Shown here: positions 3,001 through 6,000 of the stretch, piece after piece | Position numbering within the stretch: position 1 is the stretch's first letter | How the letters are laid out: each line of letters starts with the position of its first letter | Origin: a virus | Lineage: Duplodnaviria > Heunggongvirae > Uroviricota > Caudoviricetes | Strand: one strand, 5' to 3' | Virus record (IMG/VR): IMGVR_UViG_2645728091_000011 | Span: 1-6,568 of that record | DNA: 6,568 nucleotides | Program-made: the position numbers

Positions 3001-6000
3001 AGCAGTTTTTCATGGATATTGTTGCCGGGTTATGCGAAGGGGATGAACCGTCACCGGAAAAGCGCCCCGTAATTTTAGATGCGCAGGATGTATTGATAAC
3101 CTACAAAGGAAAGCTACCGGGAAGAATTACTTGTTCTCTGAAGATGCCGCCGTCAACACTGCGGTCAGAAAAAGATGATGTTGAATCGCGTATTGAAAAA
3201 CTGGAGTGCTATATCGCTGAATTGAAAAAAAGCACCCCAACAAAAAATGAGGTGCTTGCAGCAGACGAAATGAAAGAAGCTATTCCTGATCGCGCGGCGA
3301 ATCTAAGCTGCGCTTCATGGTTGAAAGAGCATCTTCAGCAGCCTGAAAAAAAACGCCGCGATGAGCAGTTTGCTGCGTTTTACGATTATTGCCGGAAAGT
3401 GATGAGCAGAAATCTCGCAGAGTGTTTCAGTATTCATAATGATAATTTCAGTGACCTGGAATGGGAGTGTAACCGGCCATCCTTTGTTGTATCCGGTGAT
3501 GCTGGGAAAATAACCATCTCAGAAAATGGAAAAGTAACACCGCCATCGCACCAGCATAGTGAGGAGCTCATTGAATTTGCCATTGATTACCTGAAGAACA
3601 ATAAAAAGCAGGGGCTGATGAAGTGCATTGGTCGTTGCATGGGATATCTGCAGATAGCTGCTGAGATTGAAGCGCTGGCCAGTGATGCGGACAAGGATGC
3701 AGTTGTGCGGGAGGCTCTTCTTCGTGATTTTGATAATCCGCCCTTTAAAAAAAGTGCCGGCTTACTGGTTTCATCCAGGACTGACTTATCTTAAAGGACG
3801 TATATAAGCTGGCTCGTTATCTGTTGCCGATAAATCCTGATAAATATCCATGAACACCAAAATCAAATACGGCCTGTCGGCTGCTGTTCTGGCGCTGATT
3901 GCCGCTGGTGCGCCTGCGCCTGACATTCTCGACCAGTTTCTGGATGAAAAGGAAGGTAACCACACCACGGCATACCGTGATGGTGCGGGGATCTGGACCA
4001 TCTGCCGTGGTGCCATCATGGTGGATGGTAAACCTGTTGTTCCAGGCATGAAGTTGTCGAAGGCAAAATGCGCTCAGGTTAACGCCATTGAGCGTAATAA
4101 GGCGCTGGCATGGGTGGAGAAAAACATCAAAGTGCCATTGACCGAACCACAGAAAGCGGGGATTGCGTCATTCTGTCCGTACAACATTGGCCCCGGTAAG
4201 TGTTTCCCGTCGACGTTTTATAAACGAATTAATGCAGGCGATCGCAGGGGGGCGTGTGAGGCGATTCGCTGGTGGATTAAGGACGGTGGCAGAGACTGCC
4301 GTATTCGCTCAAACAACTGTTACGGTCAGGTATCCCGTCGCGACCAGGAGAGTGCGCTGGCGTGCTGGGGAATTGACAGATAAGCAGAATATTTTGCTGA
4401 AAAATGCGGTTTGCTCACACGGACGGATAACACGAAATCCTGCGAACTGACAAAAACTAAGTGAATAAAAGTAAAAACCCCGTTTGTTGGCTGCAAGCGG
4501 GGTTTTGTGTTTCCTGACTCTGGAAAAGTCAAAGGAGAAAGTGTGTTTGATTTTAGCAAACTGATTCGGGAGATTCGAGTGATGGCTGAAAAATTATCCA
4601 CCTGGAAGTTCATTCTTATCTGGCTGGTGTTTGTGATTATGGCCTCCGGTTATTTCATCGGTCAGATACGCTGGTGGTGAAATGAACCGCGTACTGTGCG
4701 TGGTCATCATTGCCCTGCTGGTGGCCTGTGGTGCGCTTAGTCTGGGGCTGAATCATTACCGTGATAACGCCATAACCTACAAAGAGCAGCGCGATAAAAA
4801 AGTCAGTGAGCTGGAGCAGGCAAATGCAACCATTACTGATATGCAGCAGCGCCAGCGTGATGTTGCTGCACTTGATGCCAGATACTCGAGGGAATTAGCC
4901 GATGCGAGAGCTGAAAATGAAACTCTTCGCGCTGACGTTGCCGCTGGTCGTAAGCGCCTGCGGATCAACGCCACCTGTCCAGGCTCCGTGCGTGAAGCCC
5001 CCACCACCTCCGGCGTGGATAATGCAACCGGCCCCCAACTGGCAGACACCGTTACACGGGATTATTTCACCCTCAGAGAGCGGCTGATGACGATGCACAA
5101 GCAACTGGAAGGGGCACAGGACTATATCCGCACTCAGTGCCTGAAATAAGTTTTGTTGATGCGCCGTATCGTCGCTGTATTCCCTCATTAACAGAGACCG
5201 CAGCCCGACAGGGAGACTCCTCTGCGCGAGTGTGCGGGGATAATCAAAAACGATACACACCGGGGTTTACCGCGTTAACGGAGCGCGGCGTTGTCCCCTC
5301 ATAGTCGCCTGTCCGGTGCGATGGTGGAAGAAGCCGGATGTTTATCACTATTAATTGATGACACAGAAATGGATTCATTGAATTTCAGCACGTTTTTGTA
5401 TTCGTGTTATTGAACATCTGTTTATTTTACTTTTAACATATTGATAATAAAAAGAGCTGTAAATCTTTAGATGAGTCGATTTTGTCCGGGGAAGTTCAAA
5501 TGGATTTTATGCTGACGGTTTCTGGTGTGGTTATCCTGTCCATTGCTTATACTGCAGATAAATATGGCTGCCATTTGTTATCACGTATTGGCGCTTATTG
5601 TTCGTTGATGCTGATTTTCTCGTCGCTTTTTTTTTGAGTAAGTTATATTAATTATAACAAATAATTTTCTGTGTTATTTTTTCAGGCTATCCCGTCAGAG
5701 GGGAAGCCTGTACTGCCGGGGAGCGAATGGAAAACTGATGTGTCCGGTAACTGCGTGTTCTGTGAACACCATGTTACTTAATTATGTAATTCATACCCGA
5801 ACTCTCTGTTGACAGCCTTCTTCTGCAGGCTTCAATAACCCACGCTGAAAAGTTTCCTGAACCTTTCAGATCAAGAGCGATGTTAATTTGTTCAATCATC
5901 TGGTTTGGAAATCGGATGTTGCGGGTTGTTGTTCTGCGGGTTCTGTTCTTTGATGACATAATGTTTCCCCATATTCAGTGTTGCTGATTTGTATTATCTG

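Follow-up and report, generated by a model that had tools for sequence, protein, structure and literature searches.

An exchangeable AT-rich cassette between Rz and ynfO in lambdoid prophages of Escherichia coli and its gene for a predicted inner-membrane microprotein

Time and again, small membrane proteins encoded by phage cargo have been found to alter phage sensitivity, transporter activity or stress tolerance. HK97 gp15 and P22 SieA are prophage inner-membrane superinfection-exclusion morons that are expressed in the lysogen. In lambdoid prophages, one place where cargo is found is the interval between the lysis gene Rz and the packaging end of the genome. Phage lambda carries bor, p78 and p79 there (~1.7 kb), DLP12 carries borD, ybcV and ybcW, and Qin carries cspI, ynfQ, ynfR, ynfN, gnsB and ydfO.

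The concept of the moron is that of Juhala et al. 2000 (as cited in Tree et al. 2014). A moron is expected to be extra DNA at a junction that is absent from close relatives, to deviate in base composition, to be expressed from the repressed prophage independently of the late genes, and to have its own promoter and terminator. Here we analyze what occupies the same interval in a stretch of 6,568 nucleotides from a Caudoviricetes record of IMG/VR (IMGVR_UViG_2645728091_000011, positions 1 to 6,568), which we call the window. A previous reading of its sequence (the original prediction) had proposed an AT-rich inserted cargo islet at 5380-5773, possibly a toxin-like or small RNA locus, or an H-NS-silenced remnant.

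Boundaries, alternative contents and distribution of the cassette

The base composition of the islet is as predicted. The GC content is 37.3% at 5380-5773 and 35.5% in the cassette core (5339-5749), compared with 51.7% in the upstream 5.3 kb and 44.3% at 5813-6568. Nowhere in the window is the GC content lower than in the core: just 2.5% of all 394-nt segments are as GC-poor as the islet, and every one of them overlaps it. The islet contains the homopolymer runs T5 at 5393, A5 at 5449, T9 at 5627-5635 and T6 at 5677. The features that we discuss are listed in Table 1.

Table 1. Features of the cassette and its surroundings (positions in the window)
Feature	Position	Strand	Remarks
Left junction segment	5150-5338		GC-rich, 190 nt; common to phages with different cargo
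Cargo cassette core	5339-5749		AT-rich, 35.5% GC; homology breaks on both sides
Conserved block	5410-5455		93.5-100% identical among alleles, flanks 68-70%; candidate promoters on both strands
Predicted promoter (sigma-70 type) of the ORF 5500-5637	5410-5439	+	TTGAAC, 18 nt, TAACAT
Promoter-like site	5435-5463	-	TTTACA, 17 nt, TATGTT; points away from the ORF, towards Rz
Shine-Dalgarno-like motif	5488-5494	+	GGGGAAG, 5 nt 5' of ATG
ORF of the ECs1538 family	5500-5637	+	45 aa; ATG 5500, TGA 5637; RefSeq CDS
T9 homopolymer tract	5627-5635	+	Encodes Phe-Phe plus the stop-codon T; length varies
Perfect extended -10	5651-5659	-	TGTTATAAT; would drive RNA antisense to the ORF; main allele only
Right-hand variable part	5750-5812		Hairpin over the ynfO stop codon and allele-specific last 12 ynfO codons
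ynfO/ylcI-family gene (DUF3950)	5774-5959	-	61 aa; conserved right-hand neighbour, outside the cassette core

The left edge has to be shifted from the predicted 5380, since homology to phages without the cassette breaks at 5338-5345. The junction proposed at the other end, after ...ACRRRL in the product of the minus-strand gene, was placed correctly: the lambda homologue is near-identical up to there and unrelated beyond. The figure of ~25 bp given for lambda at this place was wrong, as ~1.68 kb with bor, lambdap78 and lambdap79 separates Rz from the ylcI-like ORF. The L106-L108 allele is homologous up to 5749, after which it has an unrelated packaging module. Wherever ynfO follows, the part 5750-5812 accompanies the cassette, and its total extent is then to ~5812. 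In this part the window and the SHP24 allele share 60% identity, compared with 86% in the ynfO core, and the DNA of lambda, Stx1 phages, Lys8385Vzw and 569R3 becomes homologous again no earlier than 5805-5825. An inverted repeat (5747-5760/5764-5777) spans the beginning of this part.

Related phages keep both flanks (5150-5338 and the ynfO core from ~5813) and differ in between. The same interval is 42 bp long in vB_EcoS-569R3; Stx1 phages have a 266-bp AT-rich piece without an ORF at the islet position, and Lys8385Vzw has a 653-bp piece with a TonB_C-like lipoprotein. The finding of common flanks with unrelated DNA or almost none between them agrees with the proposed insertion. Thus the islet is almost certainly an exchangeable cargo cassette, or moron, in the hot spot of lambdoid prophages that reaches from Rz/Rz1 to ylcI/ynfO-cos. 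The segment 5150-5338 is 94-96% identical across the alleles and in phages without the cassette, and lies 5' of 142 of the 144 cassette copies with enough upstream DNA. No unusual fold was found in it. It likely serves as a recombination anchor.

The right-hand neighbour matches PF13132 (E 9e-19, 67.5 bits, cut-off 25), NF041551 (YlcI/YnfO; 35.2 bits, cut-off 30) and phrog_949. Lambda has an unannotated homologue of 64 aa (NC_001416 48109-48303, minus strand). The original prediction called this gene RHH (ribbon-helix-helix), for which the sequence signal is confined to a weak HicB-like PHROG match (E 0.012); there was no Pfam RHH match at E<=1 and no relative in the PDB. A full-text literature search for ynfO/ylcI returned nothing useful.

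The cassette is carried by 734 of the 5426 complete E. coli genomes (~13%, about one in seven), the major outbreak lineages O157:H7 and O104:H4 included. It is absent from 185,579 species-representative genomes of GTDB that were scanned with a peptide pattern and with 22 nt of the conserved block; the two nucleotide matches, in Anaerovorax and Desulfurivibrio, are due to chance. Scans of IMG/VR and metagenomes revealed only three allele groups. The packaging modules 3' of the cassette represent at least four contexts: the lambda-type cos/nu1 module (37 loci), an HNH/HK97-type module (19 loci), another ynfO-linked module (67 loci) and a module without ynfO (4 loci). The prophage of the window is of the lambda-type cos/nu1 kind; in Sakai the cassette is in the HNH/HK97-type context. 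In total, ynfO follows the cassette in 123 of the 128 loci with enough downstream DNA.

The ECs1538 gene, its signals and its expression

The predicted hydrophobic ORF of 45 aa, convergent on the minus-strand gene 5959-5774, is present in the window. It is real insofar as it is annotated as encoding a hypothetical protein (WP_000347012.1, WP_000347013.1) and published data show its transcription and ribosome occupancy. In the prophage Sp6 of O157:H7 Sakai it is ECs_1538 (NP_309565.1), and its locus tag in EDL933 is EDL933_RS08445. The Sakai gene likewise lies between Rz and ynfO, and all 45 residues are identical; with T8 in place of T9 in the T tract, its product ends in an additional Glu. 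The T8, T9 and T10 variants end in ...FFE, ...FF or ...FLSKLY, respectively, so the C-terminus is unstable due to slippage in the tract. By full-text search no paper names ECs1538, which appears in supplementary tables only, and the peptide is absent from the searched supplements of smORF papers.

The product, MDFMLTVSGVVILSIAYTADKYGCHLLSRIGAYCSLMLIFSSLFF, has a GRAVY of +1.21 and two hydrophobic segments. An AF2 model contains helices 2-22 and 24-44 (pLDDT 78), and two TM helices and an inner-membrane location were predicted for ECs1538 by Hücker et al. 2017 (PMC5597208, S9). Therefore the product is probably, as modelled, a two-helix hairpin in the inner membrane, and its positively charged loop (K21/H25/R29) would face the cytoplasm. 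Among 5.8 billion proteins (word-indexed search) and 1.84 billion representatives (full HMMER search), the only homologues were E. coli self-matches; the remaining matches, to repeat proteins, are due to chance. No family for the peptide was found in Pfam and NCBIfam (E<=1), PHROG or PADLOC.

The most conserved stretch of the cassette is non-coding: 35 nt are invariant within the block 5410-5455. The predicted promoter of the ORF is the only promoter-like site found at the same position in the three alleles, and among the plus-strand sites it ranks first in two of them and second in the third. The predicted start at ~5446, which corresponds to ~1,648,658 on the plus strand of EDL933 (NZ_CP008957), gives a 5' UTR of ~54 nt. 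In this UTR CGGGGAA is invariant in all alleles and the rest is 68% identical. Hücker et al. (PMC5597208, S4 Table) list for ECs1538 a BPROM promoter with LDF 8.00 (table mean 3.43) and a Shine-Dalgarno sequence 4 nt upstream with dG -3.6. A match to the Fur box in the conserved block (12 of 19 consensus positions) was rejected, being equalled in 61% of shuffled islets.

A canonical intrinsic terminator is absent 3' of the ORF, and FindTerm gave none for ECs1538 (Hücker et al., PMC5597208). The T9 tract was rejected as a canonical terminator because no GC-rich hairpin precedes it, and the hairpin 5683-5710 was rejected because of its T-run, which is on the wrong side. The only candidate is the hairpin 5747-5777, followed by a weak T-rich tail. 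Elsewhere in the window there is a bidirectional terminator-like hairpin at 4478-4510.

The strand-specific data of Hücker et al. 2017 (PMC5597208, S2 Table) describe the expression of ECs1538 in LB: 57.6 RPKM of RNA and 26.1 RPKM of footprints, with a footprint coverage of 0.98 and a ribosomal coverage value of 0.46, below the mean of 1.55 for short annotated genes in this medium. RNA of the neighbours amounts to 10.1 (ECs1536), 3.0 (ECs1537) and 8.4 RPKM (holin ECs1530). Thus the expression of ECs1538, moderate in absolute terms, is 5-19 times that of the adjacent late genes in uninduced Sakai. This contradicts the proposed H-NS-silenced remnant, and by these published RNA-seq and Ribo-seq data the cassette is expressed from the repressed prophage independently of the late genes. 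It is likely that ECs1538 is a genuinely translated gene.

Proposed role and alternative explanations

We propose that the moron of ~0.41 kb (0.47 kb with the ynfO tail) forms a small transcription unit of its own, on the same strand as the late genes, in which the predicted promoter and the Shine-Dalgarno-like motif would drive the 45-codon ORF. The whole reading, an independent unit encoding a two-helix inner-membrane microprotein, appears reasonably probable. The product would then be a lysogenic-conversion microprotein that binds or perturbs a host inner-membrane protein. It may block the entry of superinfecting phage genomes or modulate a transporter; such a specific role is tentative and, in our estimation, doubtful. 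A function in lysis or packaging is not favoured.

One can suppose that the islet is non-functional AT-rich filler with a fortuitous ORF. The footprints would then reflect pervasive transcription and translation of AT-rich acquired DNA, and only recent common ancestry and elements at the DNA level would account for the conservation. The lack of homologues beyond E. coli prophages, the moderate expression, the unstable C-terminus and the ORF-less 266-bp AT-rich piece at the same place in another phage are in line with this. The substitutions within the ORF are also of little help to a protein-coding view: differences are spread evenly over the three codon positions (8:6:10), and a simulation with 24 random substitutions gives on average 14.6 residue changes against 13 observed (P 0.29; joint 0.08), with the ORF staying intact 30% of the time. 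A Nei-Gojobori dN/dS of 0.31 was discarded as evidence of selection, being not significant in a simulation that matches the transition bias. The selection test stayed weak because only three allele groups were found, and selection at the protein level is only marginally detectable. However, the pattern of conservation argues against filler. Between the window and the SHP24 allele identity is 93.5% in the block 5410-5455 and 82.6% without gaps in the ORF, compared with 62-70% with gaps in the flanking parts, and the frame of the ORF is the only one open in both. The conservation of the ORF thus exceeds that of its flanks by 12-20 percentage points, and indels, of which the flanks have many, are absent from it in the three alleles. 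Its frame is open in all three, and 156 of the 158 copies are intact, rare frameshifted copies notwithstanding. The C-terminal 20 codons have 3 synonymous and 2 conservative changes, and the main allele has 4 synonymous and 3 non-synonymous polymorphisms, among the latter a change of ATG to GTG. Pooling all comparisons yields 17 synonymous and 20 non-synonymous substitutions. Both the two-helix hydrophobic pattern and the Shine-Dalgarno motif with one promoter-like site are kept between alleles. Taken together, these observations make filler unlikely.

The remaining alternatives concern RNA. In a type I toxin-antitoxin-like module, which the original prediction had considered together with an sRNA locus, a membrane-damaging peptide would be restrained by antisense RNA (dedicated or from ynfO read-through) and the module would stabilise the prophage or abort infection. 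The peptide is hydrophobic, shorter than 60 aa and has an aromatic C-terminus, which fits the protein features of Fozo et al. 2010; the prophage location, the convergent ynfO, the extended -10 antisense to the ORF in the main allele, the low ribosomal coverage value and weak 5'-3' pairing in the centroid fold, between A5 (5449-5453) and the T9 tract, point in the same direction. But the L106 allele has lost this -10 by deletion and the SHP24 allele has a degenerate form of it, so the three alleles have no antisense promoter in common. The convergent layout is not conserved either and is therefore dispensable: one allele precedes a packaging module without ynfO. The folding of the RNAs is not stronger than that of shuffled sequences, with z +0.57 for the sense and +0.93 for the antisense strand, in contrast to known antitoxin regions, and no tandem duplication is present. 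Rfam 15 has no match at E<=1 in 5339-5749; the matches in the window at this threshold, STnc100 (28-240) and three sub-threshold chance matches, are all outside the islet. The peptide has no similarity to the Hok, Ldr, Ibs, TisB, ShoB, DinQ and ZorO families, and during exponential growth 98% of its ORF is occupied by footprints. The type I reading is thus unsupported and seems quite unlikely. The conserved block could instead act as a regulatory DNA or RNA element, for example as the source of an sRNA or dual-function RNA, or as a divergent promoter with a minus-strand transcript that enters Rz/Rz1 in antisense orientation and reduces lysis-gene expression in the lysogen. The non-coding nature of the most conserved stretch, with promoter-like sites on both strands, would agree with this, as would the minus-strand RNA 5620-5780, which folds better than shuffles (z -3.4), and the hairpin 4478-4510, which could stop leftward transcripts. 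This group of prophages is also rich in sRNAs, STnc100 being inside the window. Yet the minus-strand site 5435-5463 is kept in two alleles and has a degraded -35 in the SHP24 allele, the alignment folds have almost no covariation (1-3 pairs, -6 to -7 kcal/mol), and the footprints argue for translation. No Hfq-bound RNA was seen at the locus in the supplements of Tree et al. 2014 examined: the anti-sRNAs of that study map to the pR' moron site, away from the islet, and Pas sRNAs lie near esterase and holin genes. We regard a regulatory element in place of a protein gene as highly improbable. A bolder version of the protein-coding reading would make ECs1538 the founder of a new two-helix membrane microprotein family, restricted to E. 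coli prophages and with a strong phenotype. It would be either a toxin whose expression is controlled by the antisense promoter of the main allele and by the slippery T tract (with a phase-variable C-terminus) or a superinfection-exclusion or abortive-infection factor. We give it little credence.

Comparison with known systems

The cassette is otherwise a case of ordinary mosaic cargo exchange at a known hot spot and raises no new question of principle. As it is expressed while the prophage is silent, its product would normally be present among the membrane proteins of the pathogens that carry it.

The type I toxins Hok/Gef, Ldr, Ibs, TisB, ShoB, DinQ and ZorO resemble the ECs1538 product in size (<60-70 aa), hydrophobicity with a transmembrane region, and origin from horizontally acquired DNA. 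Unlike them, ECs1538 has two predicted helices and not one, is translated in growing cells, and matches no known toxin family in Pfam and NCBIfam (E<=1) or in HMMER searches of 1.84 billion proteins. Promoter, Rfam and fold predictions gave neither a conserved antisense or overlapping sRNA gene nor a structured mRNA. HK97 gp15 and P22 SieA are larger and lie elsewhere in the phage genome; they illustrate, by analogy only, the kind of action that we suggest for the ECs1538 product.

The closest systems are found in the same slot. YnfQ, YnfR, YnfN and GnsB of Qin are likewise encoded by short cargo-type ORFs between Rz and ynfO. No similarity to ECs1538 was detected in these small proteins, and the Qin genes are not known to encode two-TM proteins. 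The bor moron is a minus-strand gene for an outer-membrane lipoprotein, in contrast to the plus-strand ORF of the islet with its predicted inner-membrane hairpin; the two have no sequence relationship, and the islet lacks an evident terminator. However, bor/lambdap78/lambdap79 of lambda and borD-ybcV-ybcW of DLP12 are likewise extra DNA between Rz and a ylcI-like ORF, present in some relatives only, and the islet shares with the bor moron a deviant base composition and expression from the prophage that is independent of late transcription.

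Gene content of the window and limits of the islet

The window corresponds to the late region of a lambdoid prophage of E. coli, and the chromosome of strain 2014C-3061 is 99.5–100% identical to it over this region.

Features of the prophage late region
Feature	Position	Strand	Remarks
STnc100-type sRNA	28-240	+	Rfam RF02076, full-length match, 69.8 bits (gathering score 47), E 8e-14; directly 5' of sialate esterase gene
Sialate O-acetylesterase gene	463-2313		
Holin gene	2606-2812		
YdfR-related ORF, 325 aa	2817-3794	+	between holin and lysozyme genes
Lysozyme gene	3850-4383		
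GC-rich hairpin AAAACCCCG...CGGGGTTTT	4478-4510		A-run and T-run on its sides; terminator-like on both strands
Small ORF	4507-4680	+	second small hydrophobic ORF, phrog_6632 (unknown function); after hairpin; stop overlaps Rz start
Rz and Rz1	4682-5149		
DUF3950/YlcI-YnfO gene (ynfO)	5959-5774	-	
Lambda-type cos, then nu1	nu1 start at 6348		

STnc100 was related by a 2026 preprint to PasD sRNAs adjoining such esterase genes. The 325-aa ORF matches phrog_1085 as a whole and the YdfR family (phrog_406) over its first 113 residues; at its position Sakai and EDL933 carry just a 114-aa YdfR, and RefSeq labels the 2014C-3061 copy an incomplete YdfR pseudogene. The hairpin lies inside the lysis cassette, in the lysozyme-Rz interval, and gives a sub-threshold "rimP leader" match. 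At 6103-6127, shortly upstream of cos, an AT-rich palindrome resembles a Fur box at 16/19 positions, more closely than any other site in the window; it lies in the region equivalent to lambda cosQ and is probably a packaging signal, not a Fur site.

The original prediction of an AT-rich islet at 5380-5773 stands, because its observed properties were confirmed. The GC content is 37.3% versus 51.7% in the upstream 5.3 kb; only 2.5% of equal-sized windows are as low, and all of these overlap the islet. It has T9, T6 and T5 runs and a 45-aa hydrophobic ORF (5500-5637, plus strand, GRAVY +1.21) convergent on ynfO, and the YnfO-family protein parts from its 64-aa lambda homologue directly after ACRRRL. 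This homologue (DUF3950) is unannotated in lambda NC_001416 (48109-48303; minus strand, 2210-2404 of our comparison sequence L004), lies just upstream of cos and is almost the same as the window protein as far as residue 49.

We set the boundaries by blastn of the window against related phages. The flanks are common and the contents between them differ, in agreement with the predicted insertion of cargo. On the left, the shared sequence extends from Rz across a GC-rich 190-nt segment to 5338-5345; on the right, homology picks up again at 5805-5825, within the last codons of ynfO. A third islet allele (comparison sequences L106-L108) is homologous only as far as 5749, where a packaging module without ynfO follows. 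The left break and this end together define 5339-5749 as the mobile core. The segment 5150-5338 is 94–96% identical across phages that have differing cargo and Rz only 82–90% identical; it keeps no ORF, folds unremarkably (z -0.5 and +0.25) and may serve the slot as its recombination anchor.

Conservation of the small ORF and its predicted promoter

Alleles of the islet fall into three groups, a main one plus L106/L118 (~91% identity) and SHP24/L165 (~77%). Between the window and SHP24, identity is 70% in the left part of the islet, 68% in the 5' UTR and 62–64%, with gaps, in the spacer between the ORF and ynfO, versus 93.5% in the block 5410-5455 (35 nt invariant) and 82.6% without a single indel in the ORF. 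The ORF frame is the only one open in both alleles, and CGGGGAA, five nucleotides before its ATG, is invariant. In a position-weight scan of both strands of the three alleles, the only promoter-like site kept at the same position in all was TTGAAC-18-TAACAT (5410-5439, predicted start ~5446). Neither the minus-strand site TTTACA-17-TATGTT (5463-5435) nor the perfect extended -10 TGTTATAAT (5659-5651), antisense to the ORF, is kept in all alleles.

The T9 tract at the 3' end of the ORF (5627-5635) is T8, T9 or T10 by copy, giving the C-termini ...FF, ...FFE/FFD or ...FLSKLY; it is a slippage-prone site that rewrites the tail of the protein. The MFE and centroid structures of the predicted mRNA (5446-5640) agree in pairing its A-rich 5' end (5449-5457) with the T9 tract (5625-5633). 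All three alleles retain the two runs, and the predicted pairing, weak and AU-rich, could be due to chance.

From sequence alone, there is thin evidence that the ORF is a gene. The Nei-Gojobori dN/dS is 0.31, a value undercut by a simulation respecting transition bias: 24 random substitutions spared the frame in 30% of trials and changed 14.6 residues on average versus 13 observed. The differences fall on the codon positions as 8:6:10. The C-terminal 20 codons carry three synonymous and two conservative changes, the main allele is polymorphic at four synonymous and three non-synonymous sites, and, pooled, the changes number 17 synonymous and 20 non-synonymous. These counts are suggestive of mild purifying selection, not conclusive.

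Expression and possible roles of the product

The decisive evidence that the ORF is a gene comes from the literature. It is ECs1538 of the Sakai prophage Sp6 (NC_002695.2, 1,561,112-1,561,252; EDL933_RS08445 in EDL933; WP_000347012.1 and WP_000347013.1). According to strand-specific data published in 2017 (PMC5597208), it has in LB 57.6 RPKM of RNA and 26.1 RPKM of footprints (ribosomal coverage value 0.46, footprint coverage 0.98), compared with RNA 32.7, footprints 7.3, 0.23 and 0.81 in BHI and 2.1, 0.6, 0.29 and 0.13 under cold/salt stress. The adjacent late genes have 3.0–10.1 RPKM in LB and ynfO (old ECs1539) has 45.6. In LB ECs1538 passes the translation thresholds of that paper, with a ribosomal coverage value below the mean for short genes (1.55). 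The same source lists a BPROM promoter (LDF 8.00), an SD 4 nt upstream, no terminator, and a product with two predicted TM helices and a predicted inner-membrane location (PMC5597208). Our AlphaFold2 single-sequence model has helices 2-22 and 24-44 (pLDDT 78).

The expression data contradict the suggested H-NS-silenced remnant, though partial silencing may occur. Ribosome coverage of the ORF in growing cells weighs against a type I toxin-antitoxin module. Such a module would suit a peptide this small and hydrophobic, and the antisense extended -10 of the main allele, but there is no conserved antisense gene, no Rfam family in the islet and no match to a known toxin family, sense and antisense RNAs fold no better than shuffles (z +0.57, +0.93), and the convergent ynfO layout is dispensable; we regard it as improbable. 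Given the weak selection and the orphan status of the peptide, a fortuitous ORF in non-functional filler is somewhat less improbable, though still unlikely. We consider it very unlikely that the islet acts solely as a regulatory RNA or DNA element.

We favour, with moderate confidence, an autonomous cassette on the late-gene strand. Its own predicted promoter would give a short mRNA in the lysogen, translated into a putative inner-membrane microprotein with the shape of a helical hairpin; read-through of the cassette by the late transcript is also expected after induction. The product might bind or perturb a host inner-membrane protein. Analogy with other membrane morons makes superinfecting-phage exclusion or transporter modulation the kind of role we tentatively prefer. 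We doubt that ECs1538 founds a new microprotein family as a phase-variable toxin or an exclusion factor.

Distribution and comparison with known cargo

Of 5426 complete E. coli genomes, 734 contain the islet; among them are O157:H7, O104:H4, O111, O121, O145 and UPEC strains. Only two deposited phage records have it, and no copy was found in GTDB species-representative genomes. Among 128 copies with enough downstream DNA, the downstream module is lambda-type cos/nu1 in 37, HNH/HK97-type in 19, otherwise ynfO-linked in 67 and ynfO-less in four.

ECs1538 itself is already known: its annotation dates back to the Sakai genome, its expression values are in a published supplement, and a full-text literature search found no paper discussing it. 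The description of the cassette (slot, boundaries, three alleles, four contexts) appears to be new.

In vB_EcoS-569R3 the same slot is filled by 42 bp, in Stx1 phages by an ORF-less AT-rich piece of 266 bp, and in Lys8385Vzw by 653 bp encoding a lipoprotein with a TonB C-terminal-like domain. The Lys8385Vzw ORF (L006 1870-2151; 93 aa, lipobox LVMGC, annotated "TonB") is a further cargo gene that, like bor, encodes an envelope lipoprotein. Lambda, supposed to have only 25 bp here, carries bor, lambdap78 and lambdap79 in a 1.68-kb interval from Rz to the ynfO-like ORF. In K-12 the equivalent slot is occupied by borD-ybcV-ybcW in DLP12 and by cspI-ynfQ-ynfR-ynfN-gnsB-ydfO in Qin. The islet is in kind an ordinary moron in a well-known slot, and its distribution and exchange are those classically seen for morons at recombination hot spots.
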